Assembly: GCA_964587725.1 (NCBI GenBank)
Contig: CAZPLO010000002.1
Location: 55,597 to 119,596 of the forward strand
Length of the DNA stretch: 64,000 nt
Direction: 5' to 3'
DNA from: an uncultured archaeon
Lineage (GTDB): Archaea > Altiarchaeota > Altiarchaeia > IMC4 > SCGC-AAA252-I15
Shown here: positions 23,245 to 37,880 of the stretch, in pieces
How the letters are laid out: every line of letters begins with the position of its first letter
Numbering within the stretch: position 1 is the stretch's first letter
Program-made: the position numbers and the translations under genes
Notes under the pieces: model-generated
What the model saw: the letters and a program-made list of their open reading frames with translations, nothing else
Told to the model about the DNA's origin: nothing
Database searches by the model: none

Positions 23245-23718
23245 TTACTCCATCGGCCCGCGTACGGTGCCTGATTCGGTGTGGTCTGACTGCACTCCAC
23301 CAACAGTCACGGTGTACGGTATGGAGACAACCACGTTGTAGATGTCTCCTGCACTTCCGCTGACACAGCCGCTGGCCGTTATCTGGAAGTTCTGTCCGGC
23401 AGCGATAGCGGATGGTGTCACATCGTATGCGCCGCAGGTTTCTGTGCCGACTTCACGGATTACCATCCCTGTTGTGGTCACAGCTATGTTGGTTCCGACG
23501 CCGTTGGTGAATATTCCCTTGAATACTCCGGTGTGGTCCAGTCCCGTTCCTGCCAGCTGTGGCTTTATTTTGGCGAAGCCGGTTGATGTTACGGTGGTTC
23601 CGCCCATGTTGAAGATGCCCAGCTGCCACATTACTATTCCCACGATCATGACCACTAGTATGGCCCAGCCGTAGGTCATAAGGTACTCCATGGCACCCTG
23701 TCCTTTTCTTCCGATCAC
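23245..23718 (-). CDS. Type IV pilin-like protein 4
   Basis: GTG start (MIGRKG|QGAMEYLMTYGWAIL) after GAGGTG RBS; close paralog of pilins 2 and 3. Confidence 0.88.
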   Translation of the reverse strand: MIGRKGQGAMEYLMTYGWAILVVMIVGIVMWQLGIFNMGGTTVTSTGFAKIKPQLAGTGLDHTGVFKGIFTNGVGTNIAVTTTGMVIREVGTETCGAYDVTPSAIAAGQNFQITASGCVSGSAGDIYNVVVSIPYTVTVGGVQSDHTESGTVRGPME

Positions 23719-23811
23719 GTTTTTCACCTCAGTTTTTTATAGAAACAGCCAACCAAATGGGTACTGATATCATATTAAAATGGTGTGTTTATAAATAGTG
23801 TTTGAGGGGCT

Positions 23812-24543
23812 ATGAGGGTTTTGTCGGATGGGGGCGCAGGGTATGTGTGGCGGAACACGCAGCTGGTGAAGAGCAGGGTACTATTGTTCCTCACGTTGCT
23901 GGTGTTGGCGTTCACCATGTTCCTACTTGACCAGGCCCCGTACTCCAGCGTCGGCCTCATCCTGGTGCCGCTGGCGTACGTGCTCGGCATATACTCGTAC
24001 AAAAGCTACCTCACATGGCGCGGCGGGTCCGTGGGGGAGGAAAGCGTAGCAGACGCCCTCAACGAGCTCGACGACTCCTACATACTGCTGAACGGACTCG
24101 TAGTCCCGCCGAACAGGGGGGACACCGACCACATAGTCGTAGGCCCCAACGGATTCTACGTGATGGAGTCTAAAAACTACGGCGGACGCATAAGCTGCGA
24201 CGGAGACCAGTGGAGTAAAGTGAAGGTGGGCCGCGGCGGCACAGTCTACACCCTCGAAATAGGCAGCCCCAGCAACCAGGTGAAACGGAACGCGAAAGTG
24301 TTGAAAGACTTCATACTGGAACATCAGGGTGAAATATTCGAGGATAAGGCGCCGCACCTGTGGGTTCACGGGCTGCTGGTGTTCACCAACCCCGACGCCG
24401 AAGTCGAACTACACAACCCCACCGTGGAGGTGGTGGAACTCGACCAGCTCGCCGAACACATACAGTCCACCGACTCCTGCTACACGCTAACGCCCGGTGA
24501 AGTCGACTCCGCCGGCAGGCTCCTCATGAAGCACTGCCGCTAG
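23812..24543 (+). CDS. Membrane-anchored NERD-domain nuclease-like protein
   Basis: Two TMs then GxxGE, DTDHIVVGPNG, ESKN, SPxxQ motifs of NERD (PD-(D/E)xK). Confidence 0.85.
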   Translation: MRVLSDGGAGYVWRNTQLVKSRVLLFLTLLVLAFTMFLLDQAPYSSVGLILVPLAYVLGIYSYKSYLTWRGGSVGEESVADALNELDDSYILLNGLVVPPNRGDTDHIVVGPNGFYVMESKNYGGRISCDGDQWSKVKVGRGGTVYTLEIGSPSNQVKRNAKVLKDFILEHQGEIFEDKAPHLWVHGLLVFTNPDAEVELHNPTVEVVELDQLAEHIQSTDSCYTLTPGEVDSAGRLLMKHCR

Positions 24544-25700
24544 AACACGATAATGCCGGAGAAGAATATGCCCAGCGCATACTTCAACGCCAGGAATATG
24601 GCCACCGAAGCCACTATGAACACCGGCGTATTCGGCACCCCCGACAAGACGTTGCCGGTTCGCAGCAGCCCCACCAGCAATGCGCCGAAGAACCCGGAGA
24701 TAACAAGTATCGCCACGGCGTACATCTGGAAGAACCCCGGGTCTATGCTCAGCGGCGACAACGCAATCATACCCTCCGGCGTCTCCTGAGCCAAGTCGGT
24801 GACGTTCAAGTTCTCCATCATCGTCGAGAAAATGGTTATGAACTGCAGCGACACCGCGAACAGCAGCGGCGCACCCACCATGATGGCGAAGATTATGAAG
24901 ATTGCGTGGGCGTTTGTTTCAGCAGCCATCTGCTTCTTCAGATTATGCTCGCGGCGCATGTCCGTGGCAATACCCTGGAGGACGTTCGGCAGGTCGCCGC
25001 CCGACTTCATCCCCTGGATGATAAGGCGGACGCTCCGGGACAGCTTCGTCGAACGCACGTGATTGGTCATACCCACCAACGCGTCCGTCAACGGTATCCC
25101 CGTCAACGTCGCCTTGGCCACGTCCTGTATCTCCACCGCCAGCGGTCCGAACTCCGGGCGTGCCGCACTCCACAGCGCGTTATACGATGTCATCCCCGCC
25201 GTCATGTTCTGGGACACCATACTCAGGACGTCCGGGAGCACGTTCTCCACCGACTCGCTGCGGCCGTTGATAAGCAGGCTTAATATGATGAACGGCATCA
25301 TAAACACCCCCACGAAACCAACCAACACAGCCACCCACGCCATGTACTCCGGGAAACCAAGGACATTCGCCGCCAGGTAGGCGACCGCAGCAACCACTAT
25401 ACTGTACACGGCGGTGACGCTCATCACCTCCTCCGAGGTCATGTCCACGCCCGCGTATATGAGCTGCTGGTTCATCCGGTTGCTGGACTTCCGGGGCATG
25501 AACCCCGCCATCAGCTTCGGAATGTGCACCATCACCACCTTCACGGTCTTGCTCATAATCTTGAAGAAGATGATGAACACCAATATCACAACGTTAACGG
25601 CCCTCAACAGAATCTGCACCAGACCCACCACCAGCTGGGACATGGTGCTGGAGGCCTCCTTCACGCCCTTCGGAACCGCAGGTTTCTTGTCATCAGCCAT
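24540..25700 (-). CDS. TadC/FlaJ-like (T2SS-F) pilus platform protein
   Basis: LPDVL, RPEFGPL, KSGG, multi-TM; in operon with the ATPase. Confidence 0.88.
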   Translation of the reverse strand: MADDKKPAVPKGVKEASSTMSQLVVGLVQILLRAVNVVILVFIIFFKIMSKTVKVVMVHIPKLMAGFMPRKSSNRMNQQLIYAGVDMTSEEVMSVTAVYSIVVAAVAYLAANVLGFPEYMAWVAVLVGFVGVFMMPFIILSLLINGRSESVENVLPDVLSMVSQNMTAGMTSYNALWSAARPEFGPLAVEIQDVAKATLTGIPLTDALVGMTNHVRSTKLSRSVRLIIQGMKSGGDLPNVLQGIATDMRREHNLKKQMAAETNAHAIFIIFAIMVGAPLLFAVSLQFITIFSTMMENLNVTDLAQETPEGMIALSPLSIDPGFFQMYAVAILVISGFFGALLVGLLRTGNVLSGVPNTPVFIVASVAIFLALKYALGIFFSGIIVF

Positions 25701-25703
25701 CTC

Positions 25704-26570
25704 TTACACCGCAGGCCTCTTGCCTTTAACGTACATTATGAACACCAGCTGGAATATCACCAACCCCACCATGATAATCCAGAACACATCCTCCGTAATC
25801 ACGCCCTCGCCCAGGAAACTGGAGAGTATGACAAGCAGCGTGACCCCCATCGACGGTATTATGACGCCCAGCATCATGTAGACGAGGCCGTAGAGGTTCA
25901 ATTCCTTCCCATAGGCTTTTATCCGGTTCTCCTTCTCCATGCGGATGTCGCTGGATATCGCCTCCAACGCCTTCACCACGTCGCTGCCGGTCTTCAACGC
26001 GTTCACAATCTGCCACATAGTCTTCCTGAAATACTCCGACGGACTCCACATTCCCACGTCGTCCAACACCTCAGTCATCGACTTCCCCTGCTGCACCTCC
26101 TGGATGATGCCCTCGCAGATTAACGAGCATTCCCCGTACTCCCCGCGGGCTATGTTGACCAGGCTGTCGAACAACGGAACGCCGGAATTCAACTGAATCT
26201 GTATGTCCTTCAACATGTACTCAAGGTCCTGGTCTATCAGCGTAGCCCTCCTCCTCATCTTCACCTTCGGCAGATAGATGAGGTAGAGTAGGGCGACGGC
26301 GGATATGAACAGCGTGAATATTATGCTGCCGTAGCTGGCCTGCAAGCCGTCGGCGAGTACGAACGGCACCACAGCAACAAGCATCACCCCCGTGAAAACC
26401 ACAAGGGTCAGGTATAAAGCCACCGACAGGTACTGGACGGAGTCGATGGTGTATCCGCTGCGTTTCAAATCCCACTCCATCTGCGGGAACAGCGGCTCCA
26501 GGTGGCGGGAGAAATCCAGCAGAGGCTCAGCCATGTGCAGCATGGTCCGGGACTCTAGTGTGGAAGCCAT
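25704..26570 (-). CDS. TadB/TadC-like (T2SS-F) pilus platform protein
   Basis: SGVPLFD, YGECS, WQIVNALKTG, YGKELN, VIIPSMG. Confidence 0.88.
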   Translation of the reverse strand: MASTLESRTMLHMAEPLLDFSRHLEPLFPQMEWDLKRSGYTIDSVQYLSVALYLTLVVFTGVMLVAVVPFVLADGLQASYGSIIFTLFISAVALLYLIYLPKVKMRRRATLIDQDLEYMLKDIQIQLNSGVPLFDSLVNIARGEYGECSLICEGIIQEVQQGKSMTEVLDDVGMWSPSEYFRKTMWQIVNALKTGSDVVKALEAISSDIRMEKENRIKAYGKELNLYGLVYMMLGVIIPSMGVTLLVILSSFLGEGVITEDVFWIIMVGLVIFQLVFIMYVKGKRPAV

Positions 26571-26571
26571 C

Positions 26572-28386
26572 CTACTGTACCAACTTGTTAATGTCTACTT
26601 TACTCTTACTCTTGGCAAGGTCTATGATTTTACCGCGGTCCAGGTAGTATTCCGTCACCATCCTGCCCACGCTGTTAACGTCCTTTATGTCGAGGTCGAG
26701 CATCCACTCCAGCACCTGCCTCTTGCCCTGCAGGTCCTCATCCACCTCCTTCTCCGTCATCCCCGTGAACAGCGCCAGCTCGTCCTTCACCCTGATGCTC
26801 GGATACATCCTGTTTATGCTGTCGCTGCGGGGGTCCCACTTGTAGAGGGTGTTCAACGTGGGGGTGTCGGATTCGTCCTTGGTGAGCTCGCATATCTCGA
26901 ACGTCCGCCGCTGCCTGGTCCTGCGGTTCCTGTACTGTATCACAATCAAGTGCAGGGACTTCATCACCGTCGGGGGAATGTCCATGGGCGGACTGGTTAT
27001 CCTGTCCACCACCTCCTGCGCGCGTTCCGCGTGGAATGTGGAGTAGACGCTGTGGCCGGTGTGCATGGACTCGAACAACACCTCCGTCTCCCGCTTCGCC
27101 CGGACCTCCCCCACTATAATCCTGTCGGGCCGCATACGCAGAGAGTTCTGCAGCAGCTCCAGCATCCCTATCCCGCCTTCGCCGTCGGGGTTAGGGGGCC
27201 GGATGGTCATGGGAATCCACTGCAGGTACTCCGGCAGATTCAGCTCCCGAGTATCCTCCAGAGAGATTATCCTCTGGTTCGCGGGCATGAACGGCATAAT
27301 CGCGTTCAACACCGTCGTCTTACCCGAGGCGGTCCCGCCGCCCACGAGTATGCTCATCTCGTACTCCACACCCATCCACAGGAAAGCCGCCACCTCCGGC
27401 GTCAGCGTGGCCGTATCCGGGTCTATCAAATGGACTGCGCTCCACGGCAGCCTCGAAAACCTCCGTATGGTAAGGGTGTTCCCTGAAGTGGATATGGGGA
27501 ATAATGTGGCGTTAACCCTGTCCCCAGTAACAAGGTGGGCGTCCAGCAGCGGGTTCAAATGCGTTATCTCCCTGCCGACCTCACGGGCCACCCGCGACGC
27601 ATAGTTCTGTATCAAATCCTCCGTCGGCAGTATGATGTTGGTTTTAAGCCAGCCCCGCTCCTTGTGGTAAACCCACACCACGTCCTGGCTGTTGTTGACC
27701 ACCACCTCCTCCAACCGGTTGTCCATAAGCAGGTACTCTATGTCTCCGAGCCCCAGCATCTCATTCACCAGTAGCCTGCTCAACGTCGCAATATACTCTT
27801 CAGACGACTTCTTCAGCACGTTCCGGAGCTTTTCCTTGGCGCGGCTGATGAACTTCACCTTCATCTTCTGGAACTTCATGGTGTCGAACACGTCCCTGGT
27901 CTCAATCTGGATTTCACCTATCAGCGCCCGCTTGGTCTCGTCCAGCAGCGCCCTGGTCACGAAGTCGATGTGGGGCATAGACACCATGTAGTGGGGGACG
28001 TAGTCTCCGCTGTCCACTACCTTCACGCCGACGCTGAAGTCGTCGCTGGTGAGTGTGTAACCGTCTAATTCCTCCTCTCCCTTTTCAGACGGCCGGGCCT
28101 TGGGGGCCTCCGGCGTGTGCATTTCAACCGACTCTGTCTCCCGCTCCTGGAGCTCATTCTTCCGCTCCTTGTAGTCGAGGGACTCCAGGTCAGGCTCCTT
28201 CAGGTAGTGGGACTCCACCCGTATCAGCTTCCGCTGCATCAAATCCTCCGCCAACCGGGTGACCATGGTCTTGTCTATTTCGAGTTTGTCTGAGGCTTCG
28301 GACACGTTTATCCTGCCGGAGGAGTTTATCAAGTCCAGAAGCCGTTTCCTCTGCCCCGTAACTCCAGAATCAGCGTTCTCCTCCAT
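26572..28386 (-). CDS. Type IV pilus assembly ATPase (VirB11/TadA/FlaI family) with N-terminal wHTH
   Basis: GGTASGKT, EDTREL, LRMRPDRIIVGEVR, TGH..YSTFHA. Confidence 0.95.
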   Translation of the reverse strand: MEENADSGVTGQRKRLLDLINSSGRINVSEASDKLEIDKTMVTRLAEDLMQRKLIRVESHYLKEPDLESLDYKERKNELQERETESVEMHTPEAPKARPSEKGEEELDGYTLTSDDFSVGVKVVDSGDYVPHYMVSMPHIDFVTRALLDETKRALIGEIQIETRDVFDTMKFQKMKVKFISRAKEKLRNVLKKSSEEYIATLSRLLVNEMLGLGDIEYLLMDNRLEEVVVNNSQDVVWVYHKERGWLKTNIILPTEDLIQNYASRVAREVGREITHLNPLLDAHLVTGDRVNATLFPISTSGNTLTIRRFSRLPWSAVHLIDPDTATLTPEVAAFLWMGVEYEMSILVGGGTASGKTTVLNAIMPFMPANQRIISLEDTRELNLPEYLQWIPMTIRPPNPDGEGGIGMLELLQNSLRMRPDRIIVGEVRAKRETEVLFESMHTGHSVYSTFHAERAQEVVDRITSPPMDIPPTVMKSLHLIVIQYRNRRTRQRRTFEICELTKDESDTPTLNTLYKWDPRSDSINRMYPSIRVKDELALFTGMTEKEVDEDLQGKRQVLEWMLDLDIKDVNSVGRMVTEYYLDRGKIIDLAKSKSKVDINKLVQ

Positions 28387-28429
28387 TTTCCGGTCGCTTT
28401 AATTATGCTTTCCGCGCAATAAATACATC

Positions 28430-29746
28430 CTAGTCCACGACGTCCAAGTGGAAGTCGCCGTCGTGGTCTGCGCACACTACAGTGTATGTTCCCGTCTCGT
28501 TGAACAGCCACTTGAAGCTGCTGCCGGCGTGTAATGTTCTGTCGCCCTCCCATGCGTCACCTCCGAAGCCTATGGCCACCAGGTGGTGCTCCACTCCGGC
28601 CGCCTCAACCCATGTGACTGTGGTGTCGACGGGCACAGTCATCCTCGGCGGTATGAACAAGTCCGTTCCCCCGTCGTGGGTTACCGTGGCCAGACAGTTC
28701 AGCCCCCTCACACCGTATTCGGTCGCGTGTTCTATGTCCAGTCGGAACCCAGGGTGCCGGGTCATCCCCTCCACCGTGCACCTGCTGGAGACGTTGCTCC
28801 AGTACAGGTAGTCTACCTGGCTGAGGTTACCGTTCACGGACACGTTGTATTCGCTCAGCAGGTCCAGGTTAACCAGGCTCTCCAGGCTTATGTTTCCGGG
28901 CCGGTCGCCGACCATGAACAGCGTGTCCGCCGCCCGGTCAAGGAACTTGCTGCTCAGGTTCGCCCGCCCCTCCATACGGTCGAAGAACGACGGCGCATCG
29001 TACTCGGTCGTTGAGGGGAGGTAGCAGCCGCTGTCTATCCAGTCGTCCAGTACGCTGCCGTTCACCACACCCGTATCAGGGCATCTTTTGAAGCCGTGTA
29101 TGGCCGCCGGCACGCCTGTCGTCGTATAATGCATGGGGTCCTCCAGCGGCTCAATGGACACAATCGACGTTACAGGGAGTCCGCGGCCAATGTAGCGGTT
29201 GCCGCTTGACTCATCCAACACCGTCAAATCGATTTCGCTCACTATGGCGTAGTGCCAGGGCTCGTATAATGCGATGCTCATGTTCCTGAACTCCACCGTC
29301 ACATTGTATCCTACGGCATCCACTCTGTCCGTCCAGTCCAATACGGTGTTGTTTCTCATGTACTTTCTGATGTCTGTTGCCGGCTGGACCGTGTTCTCTA
29401 GGGTGCCGCACACCATCAGCTCAGCCAGCGCCGCCTCCACGCCGTCGACGTGGTATCTGAAGGAGGTGCAGTTCTCCATCACGTAACCGTCGAATGTTTC
29501 GTTGGTTAATATTACGTGGTTGACGGCGTACGCTGTCGCCCGCTGCCCGGAGATGGCGAACGCCCGCCCAGCGTCCTCCATCAGTGACTCAACGTAGTAG
29601 TGGAGTTCGTCCAAGTCCATGCGGTTAGACACGTCCGCGTAGGCGGGGGAGGATATGGCTGTGTAGAAGAACGCTAGGGACAGGGCAATCAGGATAAGCA
29701 TTGTGGTAACCAGGGTGAAAACGTATCCGCGGGAGCCTAAACCCAT
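28430..29746 (-). CDS. Large pilin-like/pilus-associated protein with C-terminal cupredoxin-like domain
   Basis: SRG|YVFTLV class III-like signal; C-terminal F.P....V..DTTVTW...H...GTYTVVCADH. Confidence 0.7.
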   Translation of the reverse strand: MGLGSRGYVFTLVTTMLILIALSLAFFYTAISSPAYADVSNRMDLDELHYYVESLMEDAGRAFAISGQRATAYAVNHVILTNETFDGYVMENCTSFRYHVDGVEAALAELMVCGTLENTVQPATDIRKYMRNNTVLDWTDRVDAVGYNVTVEFRNMSIALYEPWHYAIVSEIDLTVLDESSGNRYIGRGLPVTSIVSIEPLEDPMHYTTTGVPAAIHGFKRCPDTGVVNGSVLDDWIDSGCYLPSTTEYDAPSFFDRMEGRANLSSKFLDRAADTLFMVGDRPGNISLESLVNLDLLSEYNVSVNGNLSQVDYLYWSNVSSRCTVEGMTRHPGFRLDIEHATEYGVRGLNCLATVTHDGGTDLFIPPRMTVPVDTTVTWVEAAGVEHHLVAIGFGGDAWEGDRTLHAGSSFKWLFNETGTYTVVCADHDGDFHLDVVD

Positions 29747-30408
29747 ACTATCAACCTCATCTCCATCGGCCCCCACAGCGTCTGCACGCCTATCCTGCCT
29801 TCGGCGTCGAAGGTCATGTTGTCCCTGTACGGTATGTCCATGACGCCGTCGCCGTCCAAATCAAGCGTTTCGTTGAGGAGGCGGTAGACTGCGTCGTCGA
29901 CCGCGTCGTCCGTGTTCGGGTGACTGTGCGATTCGAAGGTGTACTGGTGCACCCCCCCGTCGCAGCTGTAGCCCTGGGGAATGGGTGTGTCGGGGGTGAA
30001 CAGGTCCGGTTCCCTCCCATACTGTATCCTCCAGCATCCGCCGTCGCTGAAGCGGTGGGGCTCCCCGTACGCGACCTCACTCACCAGGGTGGAGCGTGAG
30101 AACGTGACCTTCACGTCGTCCACGGAGAGGTTGCCCGCCGCCTCGGACTTCAATACCGTCGGGACAGTGCAGTTGCCTGATGCGGGGTCGTATATGCAGC
30201 CTATGCACCAGCACCCACCCCTTACGTAGCGGTTCACGCTGCCGGTGGCCTCTACGGTTTCCGGGCCTGCGAAGGTTGTCGAGGCAGCCCATTCGTAGTC
30301 TGTGTCGTTGCCGACGTCCAGGAATATTCCCGACTGGGCGTGTGCTGTGAGCAGTGCCGCGGCGGCCAGCAAACCCGCCAGCAGGTAGAAACCAGACCTC
30401 ATATCCAA
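29737..30408 (-). CDS. Secreted pilus-locus protein
   Basis: Hydrophobic N-terminus, Cys pairs, C-terminal LWGPMEMRLIVW; overlaps the next gene. Confidence 0.65.
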   Translation of the reverse strand: MDMRSGFYLLAGLLAAAALLTAHAQSGIFLDVGNDTDYEWAASTTFAGPETVEATGSVNRYVRGGCWCIGCIYDPASGNCTVPTVLKSEAAGNLSVDDVKVTFSRSTLVSEVAYGEPHRFSDGGCWRIQYGREPDLFTPDTPIPQGYSCDGGVHQYTFESHSHPNTDDAVDDAVYRLLNETLDLDGDGVMDIPYRDNMTFDAEGRIGVQTLWGPMEMRLIVWV

Positions 30409-30442: not shown

Positions 30443-30907
30443 ATGGTACTGGAGGACTGGCTGTGGGTTCTGCTCATCACATGCGTGCCGTGGATTGAGT
30501 TGCGGGGCAGCATACCCGCGGGCATAATCCGGTTCGGCTTGAATCCCGTGCTGGTGTTCGCGTCCGCCGTGTTGGTGAACATAGCGGTCATATACCCTGC
30601 GTTCGTGTTCCTGGACTGGTTCTTCGACTTGATGAACAGCACGCCCTTGAGGCACTTCATAGACCGGACGCAGCGTAAGGCACAGCCGTACGTGGAGAAA
30701 TACGGGATGCTGGGTCTGGCGTTGTTCGTGGCTGTTCCGCTGCCGGGCACCGGCGCATACTCCGGCTCCCTGGCGGCCCACATATTCGGGATTAAAAACA
30801 GGCGCGCGTTCCTCTCCATAGCGGCGGGGGTTACTGCAGCAGGTGTAGCCGTCACGTTGATGTCGACGCTGTTCAGGGACACGTTCGGCTGGCTGTTAGG
30901 ACTTTAG
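30443..30907 (+). CDS. Small multi-drug export family (COG2426-like) membrane protein
   Basis: PWIELRGSIP, FVAVPLPGTGAY motifs. Confidence 0.88.
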   Translation: MVLEDWLWVLLITCVPWIELRGSIPAGIIRFGLNPVLVFASAVLVNIAVIYPAFVFLDWFFDLMNSTPLRHFIDRTQRKAQPYVEKYGMLGLALFVAVPLPGTGAYSGSLAAHIFGIKNRRAFLSIAAGVTAAGVAVTLMSTLFRDTFGWLLGL

Positions 30908-31444
30908 GTCCCGGCGCATGCTCTGGAGGTACTCCTCCACTTCGCGGGTGAAGTCCTCTTTCATGGGCTTCCCCAGCAGGTTCTTCTTCGCCACAGAACG
31001 GTAAATCTGCTTCCTCAGCCTCCTGCTCTTCTTCGAATCACCCTCCCGTATCACTGGCAGGTTCTTCATCGGCGGGTAGATGACCTCCACCACCTTGTGT
31101 TTGTCGAGGAAACGCACCAGGTCGTTCAGCGCGTAGATGCTGACGTCCAGTTCCGTCGCTATCTCGGCCATGTCTATGGTCTTCCTCCTCTCCAGCAGAG
31201 TGAGTATGTGGAATATGAGCAGCTTCTTCTCTCGTTCGTCAAGGCCGCCTTCCTCCTTCTTCCCGGAGGGGCTGAAGGAGCCGGTGAGGTAGTTTATGTC
31301 GGAGTCTCGTGTGACGACCGCAATAAGTATGACGGCGACTACTACCACGTAGAGGCTCAGCTGGGAGCCGAAGCCGAGGAGCAGCACCAGCAATGCGGTG
31401 AACGCGACTATTACGCCCACCATCGTCTTGGTGTTCTCTTTCAC
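30896..31444 (-). CDS. Membrane protein (2 TM) with cytoplasmic winged-helix-like domain
   Basis: Two N-terminal TMs; ILTLLERRKTIDMAEIATELDV...FLDKHKVVEV. Confidence 0.7.
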   Translation of the reverse strand: MKENTKTMVGVIVAFTALLVLLLGFGSQLSLYVVVVAVILIAVVTRDSDINYLTGSFSPSGKKEEGGLDEREKKLLIFHILTLLERRKTIDMAEIATELDVSIYALNDLVRFLDKHKVVEVIYPPMKNLPVIREGDSKKSRRLRKQIYRSVAKKNLLGKPMKEDFTREVEEYLQSMRRDLKS

Positions 31445-31445
31445 C

Positions 31446-33785
31446 CTACACCTCCTCCTTCTCCAGGGCGGCGAGTTCCTCGTCTATTTCGTCGCGGGGC
31501 ATCCGCGGCCGCCCAGTCGAAGGCTTCTTAAGCCTAACATAAGCTACCGCGGCCACGGCCACGGCAAAAGCCAGTATCACGTAGATTGTGTAGTCCTGTC
31601 CTTCGCCGCCTCCGCCGTTGACGGGTTTGCCGATGCTCTGGTTCGCCCTCCGCACCAAATCCAGGGCGGTGTCGGAGGCGTTGTGGTAGTCCGCGCGCTC
31701 GTATAGTTCGCCGGCGGTTTCCGCATAGGACATGGCCTTGGGGTAGTCTCCGGACTCGTAGGCGGTCAGCGCAATCCTGTAGTGGCGGTCCGCTATCCTG
31801 ATGACCAGTATGTCCGACCGCACGGTTCCGTTGTAGTCGTCTATCTCGGCATATATCTCCTTGGCCCGGTCTATCATCATCAGCGCCCCGGAGTAGTTGC
31901 CGAAGTTACTCAGCGTGACGGCTTTGGTGTAGTATCCGTCCGCCGTAAGTCGCTTCTGCATCCTCATCTCGTCCCTGATGCTGTCCTCGAGTTCGTCGCA
32001 GTTTTCCACACCCGTTCCGTCGCCTATCTTCTCGTATATTCTGCGGGCGTCGTCTATCTTCCGCAGGGCGGCCTCCAGGTTGTTCATGGCGTAGTAGCTT
32101 AGGGCCTGCGAATAGTGGCGGTCCGCCTCCTCCTTGTTCTTCACCCTGAACTCGTCGTCTATCCTGGCCCTGAGCAGGTTCACCCGGGGAAGGCTGTCAC
32201 GGTCTCCTATGTCGTTGTAAAGTTCCGCAGCCTTGTCGACGTATATGCTGGCGTTGGTGACGTCGCCGGAGACGAGGTTGTCATAGGCTATGTTGTAGAA
32301 GTTGTCTGCCCGGAATTTCTTGATATAGTACTCTGTGGCTTCGAACCGGGTGACGTTGGCCGTGGTGTAGCCTATGAAGTCCGTGAGTCCGTTACCGTCC
32401 ACGTCAGCCACCCTGAATCCGTAAAGCGACTTGCCCGCGAAGTAGCTCCACTTGAGGCTGCCGACGGCGTTGTATACGTACACGTTGCCGTCCCTGGAAG
32501 AGACTATCACGTCCTTGAAACCGTCTAACTCCACGTCCTCCATACGTATGTCTGTGATGGCGTCGTCGACCCTCTGTTTCCACCGGAGTCTGCCGTTGCT
32601 CTCATACGTCTCTATGACGCCGCCGCTGCTCCCCGCCGTGACCTCCATGGTGCCCTGGCCGTCAACGTTGGCGGCGTACACCCGCCGCACCTGGCCCCCA
32701 AGGTCCGACCCCCACCTAGCTCCCATGGCACTCACGTTTGATGCGTTAATGACGTAGAACATTCCGTTATTGGATGCTATGACGAGCTCCCTCAGGATGT
32801 TGCCGTCTATGTCGCCCGCGTATATGTCGCGGACGCTGTTGTCCACCCCCTCCACGATTTTGCCGTCGTCGTCCCTCTTCCACACTTCGTATGTGCCGGC
32901 CACGCCACCGGCCTGGTCCAGTACGACTACTGTGCCGTTCATATCCTTGTATTCGACGTAACGCCACCCCAACACATCACCCGTAGACCCCTCCTCGCAT
33001 ATTATCTTCGTGTAGGTGCGGTAGCAGATGTCTTCGGTCTGGTTTCCCTCAATTTCCTCCTCAGACCATCTGCAGCTGCAGTCCCTCAACCCGGCGCAGC
33101 ATTTGCTGGGGTCGAGGCAGTCTGCTTCCGTCGCCCACCCGGATTCCTCGTCCACGACGTCCTCGCTGTAGCAGACCTGCCCCTCAATGGGCTCGTCGGT
33201 TTTCTCGTTGTATACGTATATGACGTTGTCTCCAACTCCGGCGGCCACGTACCTTTTACCCTGCTGCCTGAGGAACGAAACGGATTTTACGCTGTCAGGG
33301 GTTATGTGCCTCCACACGGGGCTGCCGTCCGGATTCACCACGTAAACCCCCCCGTGGTACCTTATAACACGGTACAGGACCCTGTTCTTTGGCAACACGC
33401 CCATGCCCTCCTCGTCAACCTCGAAGTCCTGGGGCGTGTAGGTGCGAACCTCCTTGGCGCCGCCGAGCCCGAATATAAGCTCTTCGACGCCGTCCCCGTC
33501 CACGTCTCCGGCGTCCATGCAGTATATCCTACCTATCATGCTGTGGTTTCCGAGCGCGAACTCGTCCACCAGCCTCCCGAACCGGTCCAGGACCACCACG
33601 GTGTTGTTCTGCAGGCCCACGTACACCTCACTGTATCCGTCTCCGTCGGCGTCAGCCAAAACCATGTCCCCCACGGACACCCTGGCGCCGTACGACCACT
33701 TCACGTCCAGGTTCATCCGCGGAGAGGCGGCCGACGCATACGACGCCAGCAGCACCACAGCCAATATGGTTAAAACGTGTTTCAT
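31446..33785 (-). CDS. Type I membrane protein: FG-GAP beta-propeller + TPR-like helical repeats + C-terminal TM
   Basis: Signal peptide, DxDGDG repeats, repeated A..YY..A......G.Y..A......A..IY..IGD, TM near the C-terminus. Confidence 0.8.
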   Translation of the reverse strand: MKHVLTILAVVLLASYASAASPRMNLDVKWSYGARVSVGDMVLADADGDGYSEVYVGLQNNTVVVLDRFGRLVDEFALGNHSMIGRIYCMDAGDVDGDGVEELIFGLGGAKEVRTYTPQDFEVDEEGMGVLPKNRVLYRVIRYHGGVYVVNPDGSPVWRHITPDSVKSVSFLRQQGKRYVAAGVGDNVIYVYNEKTDEPIEGQVCYSEDVVDEESGWATEADCLDPSKCCAGLRDCSCRWSEEEIEGNQTEDICYRTYTKIICEEGSTGDVLGWRYVEYKDMNGTVVVLDQAGGVAGTYEVWKRDDDGKIVEGVDNSVRDIYAGDIDGNILRELVIASNNGMFYVINASNVSAMGARWGSDLGGQVRRVYAANVDGQGTMEVTAGSSGGVIETYESNGRLRWKQRVDDAITDIRMEDVELDGFKDVIVSSRDGNVYVYNAVGSLKWSYFAGKSLYGFRVADVDGNGLTDFIGYTTANVTRFEATEYYIKKFRADNFYNIAYDNLVSGDVTNASIYVDKAAELYNDIGDRDSLPRVNLLRARIDDEFRVKNKEEADRHYSQALSYYAMNNLEAALRKIDDARRIYEKIGDGTGVENCDELEDSIRDEMRMQKRLTADGYYTKAVTLSNFGNYSGALMMIDRAKEIYAEIDDYNGTVRSDILVIRIADRHYRIALTAYESGDYPKAMSYAETAGELYERADYHNASDTALDLVRRANQSIGKPVNGGGGEGQDYTIYVILAFAVAVAAVAYVRLKKPSTGRPRMPRDEIDEELAALEKEEV

Positions 33786-33789
33786 CTTC

Positions 33790-34734
33790 CTATCCCACCG
33801 GCGCCTTCACCTTATCCAATACTTTGGAGATTATGTCGTCCGGGGTGATGCCGAAGTCTCTCGAGTCCGGATTCAATATTATCCTGTGCCGGAGCACCGG
33901 GAACGCCAGGTTCTTAATGTCTTCGGCGTTGACGCTGTCCCTGCCCTTGAAGAACGCCCTCGCCTTAGCCGCCTTCGTGAAGTCCACCGTCGCCCGGGGG
34001 CTGCCGCCAGTCGCAACCTCCCTGCGGGTGCGGGTGCCCTCCACAATCTTTATCAGGTACTCCAGCATGCTGTCTGACATGGCTATGCTGTTCTCTATCT
34101 CCTCCCTTATGATAAGTATCTCCGGCGGATTGAATATCTTGCTTATTTTAATCTCCTCGGCCTTCGACTTCACAATCATCATCTCCTGTTCCAGCGTCAA
34201 ATACTGCATCACGGACTTGAACATGAAACGGTCCTTCTGGGCCTCCGGAAGCGGATAGGTGCCGAGCTGCTCCACAGGGTTCTGTGTCGCCAACACGGTG
34301 AACGGCTGCGGCAGCTTATGGGTCGTGCCGCCCAGCGTCACAGCCTGCTCCGCCATGGCCTCCAGCAGCGCCGACTGCGTCTTCGGCTGCGCACGGTTTA
34401 TCTCGTCCACCAGAAGCAGGTTGGTGAAGATGGGGCCCTTCTCCAAAACCTTCTCCTTCTTGGCTTCCTCGTATTTCACCTTCCCGAGGATGTCGGAGGC
34501 GGTGACGTCCGGAGTGCACTGAATACGCTTGAAAACCATGTCCATGGTTTCCGCGATGGTTTTCGTCAGCACGGTCTTTCCCATGCCCGGAACGCTCTCC
34601 AGCAGGATGTGTCCGCCGGCGAAGACAGCGATTAATATGTCCTCTATGACCTCATCGTTGCCTATGACGCGCTTGTGGACTTCGTCTCCCAGCTGCCGGA
34701 ACTGCTGGAACACGTCCTTGTCTCTCTCAACCAT
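33790..34734 (-). CDS. moxR: MoxR-family AAA+ ATPase
   Basis: ESVPGMGKT, RIQCTPD, DEINRA, ATQNPVEQLGTYPLPEAQKDRF, GGSPRA, VLRHRI. Confidence 0.95.
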   Translation of the reverse strand: MVERDKDVFQQFRQLGDEVHKRVIGNDEVIEDILIAVFAGGHILLESVPGMGKTVLTKTIAETMDMVFKRIQCTPDVTASDILGKVKYEEAKKEKVLEKGPIFTNLLLVDEINRAQPKTQSALLEAMAEQAVTLGGTTHKLPQPFTVLATQNPVEQLGTYPLPEAQKDRFMFKSVMQYLTLEQEMMIVKSKAEEIKISKIFNPPEILIIREEIENSIAMSDSMLEYLIKIVEGTRTRREVATGGSPRATVDFTKAAKARAFFKGRDSVNAEDIKNLAFPVLRHRIILNPDSRDFGITPDDIISKVLDKVKAPVG

Positions 34735-34757
34735 CGCTAATGTATTTACTTTACCTT

Positions 34758-37700
34758 TTAATTACCGGCCCCCGCCTTCACGTTAACGGGCTCGCTGCTC
34801 TTGAAATACCGTTTTCCGTCCGGGTCCCTGTAAAACAGCTCCACCAGCTTAGCCGGGTAACTGCCTTCCCGACTGGACTTGAACTTAACCTTCACCGTAC
34901 GTTCCCCGCCCGCCGGGAGGGACTTGATTTCCTCCGGAGCCTCGGATACTTCGAAATCGTCTGTGGTGTTGCCGAGGAACCGGACTCCGGTGACGTCCAC
35001 GCCGCCGTCGTTGACGACCAGCCCGTCAACCCCCACCTCACTACCCACTTTCACATCCAAAGTGTCGCCGAAATCCAGCGTCACAGACGGCGTGTCGCCG
35101 GCCGGAGCCTTCTCCTCCACGGCCCCTGTAGCTTCCCCACCCCTCGCCTGCTCATCCGGCTTCTCCTCGTCGGGCGCTCCGGTGTCCAGCATGGTCCGCG
35201 CCTCCGCAGCTCCGCCCTCCAAAACCTCCAGTTCGCGTCCGCTGAATCCACCGGACTTGACCGCCTCGTTCAAATACTTCAGCGCCTCCTCCAGTTTCTC
35301 AGAGCCTCCGGCATCCCCCTCCTTCAGCATTTTAGTTCCCTCGGCCTTCAGCCTGTAGCCGGCGGAGCGGTTGACGCGGTCGTCCATGCGGCTGCGGCGG
35401 TAATAGGGTATGGACTCCTGGTAGTGTTGGGCCGCTCCTGCGGGGTCCCCTATCGCATCCAGGGCCTGTCCGATAAACCAGTGGGCGTCTCCCAGGCGTT
35501 TCACGGTTGTCTCATCCTCCACTTCACGGCCGGCCCCGATGTAACGTGTGTAGCAGTCTATTGCCTTCCGGTAGTGTTTCTCCAGCTGCTCGTCGGTCCT
35601 GAACTTACCGTATGTTTCAGCCATCTGGCGGTAGCCGTCGCCGGCCTGGAACCAGTTGCCGTTCCGCTCCTGCGACTCACCGTATCTCCTGTAGGATTCG
35701 ACGGCCTTCATGTAGTTTTTGAAGTCGGCCGCCGGCCGTTCAATGACCTCCACGCTGACTTCGCTGCTGGCTTTGACGTATTTGTGGCCTTTCTGGTCCT
35801 CGTAGTAGACTTCAATAGGCTTTATCCTGTATTCCCCCGTCCTGCTGGCCGTCAACTCCACCGAAGCCTTCCTTTCGCCGCCGGGCTCCAGCTCCGGCAC
35901 ATCGTCCGGCAGCTTCAGCAACTCCATCTCCTCGGGCAGATGCTCCAGAAACGTTATCCCCTTCATGGTGTAGCTTCCGTTGTTGCTGAGCTTCAAATTC
36001 AGCACTACGGGGACGCCGGAGAATGTTACCGTACGCTGGTCCATATCCAATGTGACGTCCGGCTTCAGTTTTATCTTGTTCACCATCGCCCTGCCTTCGT
36101 CGACGTTCTCCCCCAGTATCCTAACATACTCTCTCTTCCAGTCGCCGCCCTCGATTGCCTCGTTGAAAAGTTTCTCCGACTCCGACACCAGCTTCTCAGC
36201 CGCGTTGTAGTCGCCGCGGTCCAGGGCCTTCACAGCCTCCACGCTCACCCGGAAAGCGGATGTCACCTTCACCCTCCCCTCCTCTCCGGCTTCCCCGTAT
36301 ATCCCCTCTGCCTTGGAGAAGTGCTGCAACGCGTTGTTAAAGTCCCCCAGGGTCTTGTAGCACTCACCTATTTTGCGGTGGGCGTCGCCTAACAGGACTT
36401 TGTTGTCTCCGGCTGCGGCGTACTTGCTGAAATACGACACCGCCTTGTCCAGCCGGTTCTTCATCATGGGGTGGTCGTGCAGTCGCCGGTAGCAGTTGCC
36501 GGCCTCCATGTAGGCGAGTCCGGCCCCGTACAGGTCTTTCTCCTCCTCTTTGGCGGCGGCGTGCCGGTCATACAGTTCGGCGGCCCGCCCGTAGTCTCCG
36601 TGGTCGACGTATGATTCAGCGGCGTCCCACAGCATCCCCCCCTCCACGTAGGCTTCCGCAGCCTCTCTGAAGGCCTCTTCGGAGCCTTCATTATCCCCTG
36701 CCTTATCCAGCAGCTCAGCCCGCCTCCTGTAGGTTTCAGCCGACTTCTCATGCAACCCTATTTCACCGTAGGCTTCAGCCGCCTTCCCCATCAAATCCGC
36801 CGCATCCCCTCCTCCAGACTTTTCAGCCGCCTTCACGTAAGCGTCCGCCGCCTTCATATAAGCGTCCCGGGTCACCCCATCGTTTTTGGCTAGTTCGCTG
36901 GCCTTAGCAGCATCCACGTACCTGTCGCCGGCGGTTTTCAAATCGCCTTTCAACGCATATGCTGCCGCGGCTTGGGAGTAGGACGCCGCCGCCTGCGCCA
37001 CAGAGTCTATGCCGTAGTATGTCTCCGCGGACTTCAGGTAGTATCCTATGGCGTTGTCCACCTCCCCGCCGTTCTGGTAGACTCCCCCGACCTCCCGGTA
37101 GCTGGCTGCGGCTTTGGCTTGGTTGTCGTTCGCAGCTCGTAGGTCGGCGGCTTTGAGGTGATAGTATATCGCGTTTTTCTGGTCGTCCAGTTCATAGTAT
37201 GCCTCGGCCATCCTCTCGTAGGTGTCAGCGACTTCAAGATATTGTCTGTTGAGGGTGTCTATCTCCACCGCCCCCGCGTAGCCGTCTATGGCATCCTTCC
37301 ACCTCCCAGCCCGCTCATAGTTTTGGGCGGCCTTCTTGAAGCTGAGGCCGGCGCTGGCCTTGTCCTTTATCTTCAGGTCCACGACCGCAGACTTCTCGTA
37401 CATCTGGGCTGCGCTGCCGTGTTCTCCGTCTTTCTCATAGTATTCTGCGGCAGCATGGTATGCGTAGCTGGCGTTGAAGAAGTCGCCGACGTCCTCGAAC
37501 ATTATCCCCGACTTTTCATAGAATTCTCCCGCCCGTTTGAAGTTGTCGAGTTCCTCGAACGTTTTAGCGCCTTTCTCATATACCTCCCCCGCCTTCTCGT
37601 GGTCGCCCAGCACCCTGTAGCGGTCGGCGCATCGGATATAGTATTCGCCGGCCTTCTCATGGTCTTTGACTCTGTCTTCATGGCTTTCGTGGTCGAGTTT

Positions 37701-37880
37701 CTCGTAGCAGTCGCCGACCTTCTCCTCGTAGAAGGCCACCTCCCGTTCGTCGCCCCCCTTAAGCGCGGTCTTCAGCAGCTCCTCGTATTTCTTCAATGCT
37801 GCACGGAAGTGCTTTCCCTTGAAGCTGCTTTCGGCTTGATGATGCAGCAGCTCCCGCCTGGCCTGCTGGAGGAGGTCCAT
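34758..37880 (-). CDS. Cytoplasmic SNAP/TPR-like alpha-solenoid protein with two Ig-like domains
   Basis: Dozens of ~20-aa A...Y..AA..Y repeats; two aligned beta-sandwich domains (PxVTLD...N.G...PGGER...Y.D..G..Y); no signal peptide or TM. Confidence 0.8.
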   Translation of the reverse strand: MDLLQQARRELLHHQAESSFKGKHFRAALKKYEELLKTALKGGDEREVAFYEEKVGDCYEKLDHESHEDRVKDHEKAGEYYIRCADRYRVLGDHEKAGEVYEKGAKTFEELDNFKRAGEFYEKSGIMFEDVGDFFNASYAYHAAAEYYEKDGEHGSAAQMYEKSAVVDLKIKDKASAGLSFKKAAQNYERAGRWKDAIDGYAGAVEIDTLNRQYLEVADTYERMAEAYYELDDQKNAIYYHLKAADLRAANDNQAKAAASYREVGGVYQNGGEVDNAIGYYLKSAETYYGIDSVAQAAASYSQAAAAYALKGDLKTAGDRYVDAAKASELAKNDGVTRDAYMKAADAYVKAAEKSGGGDAADLMGKAAEAYGEIGLHEKSAETYRRRAELLDKAGDNEGSEEAFREAAEAYVEGGMLWDAAESYVDHGDYGRAAELYDRHAAAKEEEKDLYGAGLAYMEAGNCYRRLHDHPMMKNRLDKAVSYFSKYAAAGDNKVLLGDAHRKIGECYKTLGDFNNALQHFSKAEGIYGEAGEEGRVKVTSAFRVSVEAVKALDRGDYNAAEKLVSESEKLFNEAIEGGDWKREYVRILGENVDEGRAMVNKIKLKPDVTLDMDQRTVTFSGVPVVLNLKLSNNGSYTMKGITFLEHLPEEMELLKLPDDVPELEPGGERKASVELTASRTGEYRIKPIEVYYEDQKGHKYVKASSEVSVEVIERPAADFKNYMKAVESYRRYGESQERNGNWFQAGDGYRQMAETYGKFRTDEQLEKHYRKAIDCYTRYIGAGREVEDETTVKRLGDAHWFIGQALDAIGDPAGAAQHYQESIPYYRRSRMDDRVNRSAGYRLKAEGTKMLKEGDAGGSEKLEEALKYLNEAVKSGGFSGRELEVLEGGAAEARTMLDTGAPDEEKPDEQARGGEATGAVEEKAPAGDTPSVTLDFGDTLDVKVGSEVGVDGLVVNDGGVDVTGVRFLGNTTDDFEVSEAPEEIKSLPAGGERTVKVKFKSSREGSYPAKLVELFYRDPDGKRYFKSSEPVNVKAGAGN

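Follow-up and report, generated by a model that had tools for sequence, protein, structure and literature searches.

A vWA-less MoxR operon with a putative TPR-Ig adaptor in one order of Candidatus Altiarchaeota

Introduction

MoxR ATPases are among the most widespread and least understood AAA+ chaperones. A DUF58 and/or vWA gene is reportedly the usual neighbour of the MoxR subfamily, as Snider and Houry are said to have found in 2006, and Bat-type operons also contain a TPR component and an immunoglobulin (Ig)-like domain of the BatD/CARDB type. Here, we describe a MoxR operon of a different composition in a 64,000-nt stretch of DNA (hereafter the window; contig CAZPLO010000002.1, positions 55,597 to 119,596, assembly GCA_964587725.1) from an uncultured archaeon of the Altiarchaeota, which are known for unusual envelopes and appendages. 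The operon encodes a MoxR-type ATPase, a large solenoid protein (here called sol), a propeller protein (here called prop) and a small membrane protein of 182 aa, and it holds neither a DUF58 nor a vWA gene. The sol and MoxR genes lie side by side in most related genomes and may form the core of a MoxR module of their own.

Several groups of described systems invite comparison. In the current MoxR models outlined in parts of two papers, a vWA co-factor captures the client of the ATPase (Kaur et al. 2020, PMC7159879; Zhang and Aravind 2012, PMC3495828). The first of these also treats ternary conflict systems of MoxR, vWA and a beta-propeller, with vWA among the core components (Kaur et al. 2020, PMC7159879). 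Finally, passages on archaeal type IV pilus (T4P) loci name KaiC-family ATPases, vWA proteins with MoxR/GvpN ATPases, and membrane-associated regulators such as ArnR as encoded at these loci or regulating them (Makarova et al. 2016, PMC4858521).

A MoxR operon without a vWA or DUF58 gene

The operon occupies positions 30896-37880 of the window. Its four minus-strand genes are separated by successive gaps of 23, 4 and 1 bp in the list of the window's open reading frames (ORFs), just as an earlier note on this DNA had described them:

34758..37880, minus strand: sol, 1040 aa, a cytoplasmic scaffold with no signal peptide and no transmembrane (TM) segment
33790..34734, minus strand: MoxR-type AAA+ ATPase, 314 aa, assigned from Pfam, invariant motifs and a PDB match
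31446..33785, minus strand: prop, 779 aa, a type I surface protein, assigned from Pfam, topology and an AlphaFold2 (AF2) model
30896..31444, minus strand: membrane protein of 182 aa, probable winged helix-turn-helix (wHTH) protein, with an N-terminal hydrophobic hairpin at about residues 8-45 and sub-threshold wHTH similarity at residues 78-113

We take all four genes to be real because orthologues occur in most of 41 related genomes. These genomes belong to one order and fall into seven families (f1, n = 21; f2, 1; f3, 2; f4, 1; f5, 14; f6, 1; f7, 1), and gene coordinates in them were tallied by hand. A phylum-wide set of 61 genomes adds the families f8 and f9. Where single cases are named, G000 is the window's own genome, other G numbers are related genomes, C numbers are contigs and L numbers are loci that were viewed.

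Pfam detected no DUF58 or vWA domain in the operon, and a six-frame search of the window's genome (1.56 Mb, 92% complete) found none on the window's contig, in agreement with what the earlier note had said of the operon. In the same search, DUF58 was confined to contig C19, and vWA to C19 and to C8:21350-21769. The AF2 models of sol and prop likewise contained no vWA-like alpha/beta fold.

The C19 genes form a DUF7502-MoxR-DUF58-BatA_N/vWA-vWA array with its own MoxR paralogue, which is 47% identical to the operon's MoxR; both are intact. The earlier note had held that a DUF58/vWA partner would turn the operon into a standard Bat-like system. Such a system does exist in the genome, although at another locus and with a separate MoxR. 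Its DUF7502-MoxR-DUF58-BatA/vWA core recurs in relatives, including three f9 genomes, and is the ancestral MoxR system of the phylum; this canonical locus has a MoxR of its own in every genome examined.

The window's operon resembles Bat-like systems in that both have an AAA_3 plus AAA_lid_2 ATPase and that a propeller/TPR surface protein is encoded beside both loci. It differs from them in lacking DUF58 and vWA, in having a MoxR from a separate clade, and in that the TPR and Ig parts are fused here in one cytoplasmic, TM-less protein of 770-1800 aa.

The vWA stretch on C8 belongs to an ORF of 1129 aa, which may encode a TadG-like pilus-associated vWA protein; a paralogous T4P-type ATPase (C8:13610-15094) is encoded about 6 kb away.

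An intact MoxR ATPase from a separate clade

The ATPase matched AAA_3 (E 1.5e-57, 193.5 bits, cut-off 27) and AAA_lid_2 (E 3.6e-19, 68.7 bits, cut-off 22.7) in Pfam, and its closest sequence match in the PDB was 2r44 (E 2.3e-77). Nucleotide binding and hydrolysis by AAA+ proteins depend on a Walker A motif (GxxGxGKT), a Walker B motif (DE) and sensor and arginine residues. In an alignment of 21 sequences, the positions of Walker A (GMGKT) and Walker B (DEINR) were invariant, and so were G50, G52, K53, T54, D110, E111, N152, R169 and R247. As judged from these motifs, the ATPase is catalytically intact and of the MoxR-proper type.

A maximum-likelihood tree of 39 MoxR rows placed the sol-linked MoxRs, together with two long-branch duplicates, in one clade (support 100/100). 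The canonical MoxRs formed a separate clade (100/99) that includes those of f9. Since branching within the sol-linked clade tracks the families, these MoxRs appear to have been inherited vertically.

We also considered a sol-specific docking tail on MoxR and rejected it. The sol-type MoxRs share a conserved C-terminal xEAPVx tail that is absent from the 12 canonical MoxRs, yet DUF58-linked 'tandem/alt' MoxRs end in a similar VPVx, and the tail is therefore no marker of a partnership with sol.

Several further MoxR arrangements were seen. One genus carries a rapidly evolving duplicate of the sol-type MoxR (branch length 1.1), seen at L047:3355-7968 (G016:C24) and L048:3-4437 (G013:C14). Both copies adjoin a TraG/HerA/FtsK-like P-loop ATPase of 900-1000 aa, and the G013 copy also lies near a second T2SSE-type ATPase; a mobile or conjugation-like element may have captured the duplicate in this genus. 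A third arrangement begins in G007 (L049:1582-6908, G007:C51) with MoxR and two genes for KaiC-family ATPases, after which come another MoxR and genes resembling DUF58 and BatA; it shares its contig with the sol cluster of that genome and lies only some 10 kb upstream of it. In G031:C24 (L050), the arrangement consists of tandem MoxRs and a DUF58-like gene behind them.

Conservation of the sol-MoxR pair

In 31 of the 41 genomes, sol and MoxR lay on one contig within 2.1 kb of each other (f1, 17/21; f3, 2/2; f4, 1/1; f5, 11/14; f2, f6 and f7, 0/1 each), with a spacing of mostly -4 to about +90 bp (18 loci). The pairing is kept even where identity among sol relatives drops to 27-30%. Among the remaining ten genomes, the two genes were on different contigs in three (G031, G037 and G040) and far apart in one (G026); three had only a sol fragment (G005, G009 and G015) and three had neither gene (G019, G021 and G025). 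In terms of presence alone, both genes occurred in 35 genomes, a sol fragment only in 3 (fragmented assemblies), a sol-type MoxR only in none, and neither in 3.

Conservation decreased along the operon. A prop gene was directly 3' of MoxR in 21 of the 41 genomes (f1, 17; f3, 2; f4, 1; f7, 1; f5, 0/14). The spacing between the two is 4 bp in the window and ranged from -38 to +43 bp in nine other loci that have both genes. The MoxR-prop pair persisted in G026 without an adjacent sol gene or pilus operon, and in G008 and G011 with the pilus operon elsewhere. The gene for the 182-aa protein was found 3' of prop in 10 of the 41 genomes, all of them f1. The earlier note had treated the four genes as one unit and had proposed their co-conservation as a check on it; by these counts, the sol-MoxR pair is conserved, whereas the four-gene unit is not.

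In the phylum-wide set, the N-terminal part of sol was found in 46 of the 61 genomes. It was absent from f9 (0/8), and f8 gave only weak generic TPR matches. The MoxRs of five f8/f9 genomes were at most 48% identical; the four that we viewed, all from f9, sit in MoxR-DUF58-BatA loci, three of them preceded by DUF7502. Thus sol and the sol-type MoxR appear to be restricted to the same order.

The sol protein is a TPR-Ig scaffold

In Pfam, sol matched SNAP (PF14938) in 4 stretches (E 2.2e-35, 122.9 bits; the best stretch covers profile positions 19-164 of 282), TPR_12 (E 2.1e-25) and the Ig-like family NPCBM_assoc (26.7 bits, cut-off 24.4). An AF2 model built on an alignment of 31 orthologues reached a predicted local distance difference test (pLDDT) score of 89.6 and divides the protein as follows:

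36069..37874, minus strand: residues 3-604, unbroken superhelix of the TPR/SNAP type (29 helices, period about 20 aa; AF2, Pfam, PDB profile matches)
35742..36056, minus strand: residues 609-713, first Ig-like beta-sandwich (AF2; NPCBM_assoc)
35181..35714, minus strand: residues 723-900, second TPR-like block of 8 helices, part of a repeated 'helical cap + Ig' module (AF2)
34770..35084, minus strand: residues 933-1037, second Ig-like domain, behind a disordered linker at 902-928 (AF2)

By Pfam and AF2, sol is thus composed solely of protein-interaction modules. It is taken to be cytoplasmic because it has no signal peptide and no hydrophobic segment, and because only ten codons are open 5' of its start (open frame 1050 aa). 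Conservation within the family is strongest in the last few solenoid helices and the first Ig domain, which ends in KPLEVxYxDxxGNKYVKASNEV. The 'cap + Ig' module occurs in one to four copies per family member, and in two to four copies in orthologues.

The orthologues are 770-1800 aa long and have no TM segment. Many of those with 900-1800 aa end in a DUF835 or DUF7504 domain that also matches KaiC. DUF835 (PF05763) was found at the C-terminus in L018 (82.6 bits), L019 (93.5 bits) and L034 (121.1 bits); DUF7504 (PF24336) scored 32.6 bits in L031 and stayed just under the cut-off of 27 in L017 (26.8 bits) and L028 (25.2 bits). A Pfam scan found neither domain in the window's own sol. A search for a stand-alone gene of this kind, which might make up for the missing domain, recovered at least 10 DUF835/DUF7504 ORFs in the window's genome, none of them in the window. 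DUF835 is described in part of Galperin et al. (2018, PMC5847659) as an inactivated KaiC (iKaiC) output domain of archaeal signalling. BatD (PF13584) was matched by four sol orthologues with 23.8-43 bits (cut-off 24.1), no single stretch passing, and was not reported for the window's sol at E ≤ 0.01.

Homologues of sol came from a narrow range. A word-based search returned 23 true homologues, followed by generic TPR proteins. An exhaustive search with a profile of the cap + Ig module yielded 48 proteins at E ≤ 1e-30; about 38 among the 150 listed span the whole module, the others only its TPR part or its Ig part. Of ten sol homologues checked for organism, names were given for five, all Altiarchaeota or Altiarchaeales, which bears out the phylum guessed at in the earlier note. 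NCBIfam contained nothing specific for sol, prop or the wHTH protein.

The earlier note had called sol a SNAP-like solenoid. SNAP is a protein of about 290 aa with about 9 helices and a C-terminal helical bundle, and it works with NSF. Searched against the PDB, a sol family profile did match alpha-SNAP (residues 41-206, E 4e-20) and Sec17 (E 4e-13), but consensus TPRs (E 5e-78) and LGN (E 1e-22) scored better than alpha-SNAP. With the single sequence, phmmer retrieved no SNAP from the PDB at E ≤ 0.001. Foldseek with the sol model gave Ctr9, Ski3, IFT-A, LGN and OGT, all generic solenoids, as the top hits among the matches listed, which to rank 50 included no SNAP. We therefore rejected a specific relationship to SNAP on the strength of these three comparisons; the similarity is that of the TPR clan in general, and sol is a TPR-clan solenoid, not a SNAP. 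What it shares with alpha-SNAP/Sec17 and NSF is the combination of a helical-hairpin solenoid gene with one for an AAA+ ATPase; the analogy extends to the logic alone. Unlike SNAP, sol runs through 29 helices and about 600 aa without a break before its Ig domains, and its neighbour is a MoxR rather than a classical-clade NSF/Cdc48 ATPase with an N domain.

The prop protein and the 182-aa membrane protein

The prop protein matched FG-GAP_3 (E 3.4e-10), Beta-prop_CGLA (E 6.8e-17) and TPR families in Pfam. It has a signal peptide, a single C-terminal TM helix and a 27-aa acidic tail, and its AF2 model (pLDDT 82.9) comprises a signal helix, a propeller (residues 26-483), a helical-repeat domain (485-717) and a TM helix (733-752). 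It is a type I surface protein whose propeller is extracellular, as the earlier note had proposed. Foldseek returned only generic hits with this model, namely designed propellers, BBS1, IFT-A and ITFG2. The likeness to IFT-A, BBS and coat proteins lies only in the succession of propeller and solenoid; it is architectural, and prop is extracellular.

A prop query gave 19 matches in the window's own genome, and the family has many paralogues. One of them is convergently oriented to the final vWA gene at the canonical locus of G000, G002 and G023; among the loci seen, only these three genomes, which belong to two families, showed it. This paralogue, with an FG-GAP propeller, helical repeats and a TM segment, was found at:

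G000:C19:12554-14671 (L032)
L042:7666-9807
L046:8527-10764

Coordinates suggest the same convergent paralogue at the canonical locus in G001, G004 and G013. An FG-GAP propeller beside vWA proteins recalls the architecture of integrin alpha/beta, by analogy only.

The window's prop also carries a cysteine-rich insert at about residues 188-281, with about 11 cysteines, which stands out from the propeller in the model as two very long beta-hairpins. The insert is present in 5 of 10 orthologues (window, L017, L018, L020 and L029) and absent from the other five. An EEVD-like tail on prop that would engage a TPR clamp was rejected as a general mechanism, the tail being acidic in only 5 of 10 orthologues.

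In the 182-aa protein, a cytoplasmic domain follows an N-terminal region with two TM helices. No Pfam family was found at E ≤ 0.01. The sub-threshold matches all belonged to HTH families (LrpA, E 0.039; MarR, 0.0097; Rrf2, 0.0063; HTH_24, 0.01), and atlas leads pointed to HTH_IclR and MarR clusters (0.80-0.82). Judged by these similarities, the cytoplasmic domain is likely a wHTH.

Neighbouring genes

Downstream of the operon, the window contains a further membrane protein gene and a set of pilus genes:

30443..30907, plus strand: Sm_multidrug_ex membrane protein, a neighbour outside the module (Pfam)
23245..30408, minus strand: T4P-like gene set (Pfam; genomic context)

The pilus set encodes pilin-like proteins of 223 aa and 448 aa, a T2SSE ATPase, two T2SSF/TadC proteins and a 160-aa pilin; a gene for a 243-aa protein lies within it on the opposite strand (23812-24543). 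The earlier note had placed the operon beside, and co-oriented with, these pilus genes. Orientation and proximity were as described, but the two sets do not adjoin directly: the plus-strand Sm_multidrug_ex gene sits between them and shares 12 bp with the 3' end of the wHTH gene. The same insertion is present in loci L018, L021 and L031 and absent from L017. The link is positional. In 11 of the 41 genomes (f1, 9; f3, 1; f4, 1), the same contig encoded an orthologous pilus ATPase no more than 15 kb downstream, the pilus operon was on a different contig from sol-MoxR in 14/14 f5 genomes, and it was elsewhere also in G008, G011 and G026. In the stretches viewed of eight separate pilus loci, prop, wHTH, sol and MoxR genes were not found. 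On its other side, upstream of sol, the operon is flanked in the window by a divergently oriented arginyl-tRNA synthetase (ArgRS) gene.

Proposed role and alternative explanations

We read the locus as a lineage-specific, vWA-independent MoxR module of one order of Candidatus Altiarchaeota, with sol and MoxR as its core, a putative adaptor role for sol and, more weakly, a client associated with the envelope; we put the probability of this reading at about 0.5. As far as the sequences tell, what is new is a vWA-less MoxR clade with a lineage-specific TPR-Ig (optionally iKaiC) scaffold. We found no publication on MoxR in Altiarchaeota and, among the results listed, none on Altiarchaeales with TPR, AAA+ or type IV pili, in a search that did not extend to subscription journals.

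In this proposal, sol would stand where the DUF58/vWA co-factors stand in canonical systems, bind the MoxR ring and hand over client proteins to be remodelled at the expense of ATP. The substitution of sol for vWA/DUF58 in client recruitment is suggested because sol consists only of interaction modules and because vWA captures the clients in current models. The clients might, with less confidence, belong to the cell envelope, because the secreted and anchored prop is the next gene in four of the seven families and belongs to an expanded family that is also represented beside the canonical MoxR-vWA locus. In those four families, prop is the strongest candidate client or co-worker. The probable wHTH protein with two TM helices, encoded in part of the window's own family, is possibly a membrane-bound regulator, and the positional adjacency to the T4P operon may be functional or not. 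The earlier note had gone further and placed MoxR and its solenoid adaptor in a trans-envelope complex that remodels a membrane assembly; the sequences speak neither for nor against such a complex.

In a bolder version of the proposal, sol would represent a MoxR co-factor of a new class, an adaptor built of TPR and Ig parts (optionally iKaiC) that took over from the otherwise near-universal vWA/DUF58. Through it, a dedicated MoxR ring would be linked in Altiarchaeota to the biogenesis, turnover or signalling of anchored propeller surface proteins, perhaps also of the neighbouring pilus, as an independent invention of the SNAP-NSF logic of a solenoid adaptor plus an AAA+ ring. We regard this extended version as doubtful and put it forward tentatively.

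Several observations weigh against the proposed module. The full DUF58/vWA set elsewhere in the genome could serve the operon's MoxR in trans. In G026, no sol gene adjoins the MoxR-prop pair, the sol-like ORFs being 65 kb and 350 kb away, and G031 and G037 have sol on one contig and MoxR on another. ArgRS is found divergent beside sol, at most one gene away, in 13 of the 19 loci viewed; since regional gene order is thus kept by descent, adjacency alone is weak evidence among kin. Because prop is missing at the locus in all 14 f5 genomes, it cannot be a universal client. Finally, the cytoplasmic tail of prop varies among orthologues (n = 10) from 5 to 50 aa, being acidic in 5/10 and short and basic or otherwise different in 5/10, so that a conserved contact across the membrane with the cytoplasmic sol or MoxR is not apparent.

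The main rival explanation would make the operon an accessory or regulator of the adjacent T4P, in which MoxR and sol, through iKaiC, would tune the assembly of the pilus ATPase and TadC, and the membrane wHTH protein would control the pilus genes. In G016, the wHTH gene overlaps the first pilus gene with none between, and the two sets look like one operon, whereas in the window a gene on the opposite strand separates them. An iKaiC domain is present in sol orthologues but not in the window's sol. A MarR-type domain forms the N-terminus of the pilus ATPase itself, and T4P loci with KaiC-family ATPases, vWA plus MoxR/GvpN, and membrane regulators provide a precedent in the passages concerned (PMC4858521): here, too, the neighbours of a T4P operon include a MoxR-class ATPase, a probable wHTH protein anchored in the membrane and, in orthologues, an iKaiC domain, but vWA is absent and the ATPase is of the AAA_3 rather than the GvpN-like kind. 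Proximity to the pilus ATPase (≤ 15 kb downstream) holds in no more than those 11 of 41 genomes, and the synteny of the region was inherited by descent, as the ArgRS control indicates. With the pilus operon on another contig in all 14 f5 genomes and elsewhere in three further ones, and none of the four genes in the stretches viewed of eight separate pilus loci, we consider a pilus accessory unlikely. Alternatively, only sol and MoxR might cooperate, with prop and the wHTH gene as unrelated neighbours kept by inherited order, so that there would be neither a four-gene system nor the trans-envelope complex. The absence of prop at the locus in 20 of the 41 genomes and of the wHTH gene in 31, the wealth of prop paralogues (19 matches in its own genome) and the poor conservation of the prop tail all fit this explanation. 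Against it, MoxR and prop lie close together (4 bp apart in the window, -38 to +43 bp in nine other loci), the two stay together in G026 without sol and the pilus operon, and a prop paralogue recurs beside the canonical MoxR-vWA locus, which is hard to put down to chance; cooperation of sol and MoxR alone is, to our minds, not probable either.

Two further explanations carry less weight. The adjacency of sol and MoxR could reflect inherited order among close kin without any coupling, the MoxR working with the DUF58/vWA proteins of the other locus. ArgRS and sol are indeed adjacent nearly as often (13/19 loci) and the genome does hold a complete DUF58/vWA set, but ArgRS is divergent whereas sol and MoxR are co-directional with minimal spacers, the sol family and the MoxR clade share one restricted distribution, and the canonical locus owns a MoxR wherever it was examined. 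We hold this to be quite improbable. It is hardly credible, and was disfavoured already, that the operon is a MoxR-centred ternary system for conflict or defence akin to the MoxR-vWA-beta-propeller systems. The ATPase does match Pfam bpMoxR (PF20030) with 39 bits (cut-off 27) and a propeller gene adjoins it, so that the pair of a MoxR and a beta-propeller protein resembles the systems covered in the corresponding part of Kaur et al. (2020, PMC7159879). AAA_3, however, scores 193.5 bits over the same region, and the canonical paralogue matches bpMoxR equally. The operon differs from those systems in that vWA and effector domains are absent, the propeller is secreted and extracellular rather than fused to vWA, and inheritance looks vertical, with a tree that tracks the families; PADLOC gave only one partial match (20.6 bits), and no defence family was matched.

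If the proposed vWA-independent module is real, a vertically inherited MoxR clade free of vWA/DUF58 and fixed beside a TPR-Ig scaffold would be a natural experiment in rewired client recognition. The canonical system is present in the same cells, which would permit a direct comparison. The module would also offer a first way into the propeller-plus-helical-repeat surface proteins that make up a large family in Altiarchaeota. Its practical value is limited because the organisms are uncultivated and function is approachable only via recombinant proteins.

Further features of the surrounding region

The 448-aa protein of the pilus operon (28430-29776, minus strand) combines a pilin-like N-terminus, with a hydrophobic helix after ...SRGYVFTL, and a cupredoxin-like C-terminal domain. 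The match to Pfam Copper-bind (18.8 bits) is below the cut-off, and that to an NCBIfam halocyanin domain (E 7.8e-07) is far below it. A pilin-like protein with a possible copper-protein domain is unusual, and orthologues of the 448-aa protein were present in all pilus loci viewed.

The T2SSE ATPase of the same operon (26572-28386, minus strand) begins with a MarR-type wHTH (MarR_2, residues 7-59, 26 bits, cut-off 27). Many f5 pilus ATPases seem to be without this domain, because the f5 orthologues match only from about residue 70-105 onward.

In some f5 genomes, a conserved 422-aa protein of unassigned family is encoded directly upstream of, and co-directional with, sol, in the usual place of ArgRS (L026:2080-3348, L033:7947-9215 and L036:9628-10899). 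In G016, a convergent pair of genes for proteins of 80 aa and 90 aa, which overlap by a few bases, lies between sol and MoxR (L017:10129-10640). This two-gene cassette resembles a toxin-antitoxin pair in size and arrangement only; it widens the sol-MoxR spacer to 615 bp and leaves the gene order intact.

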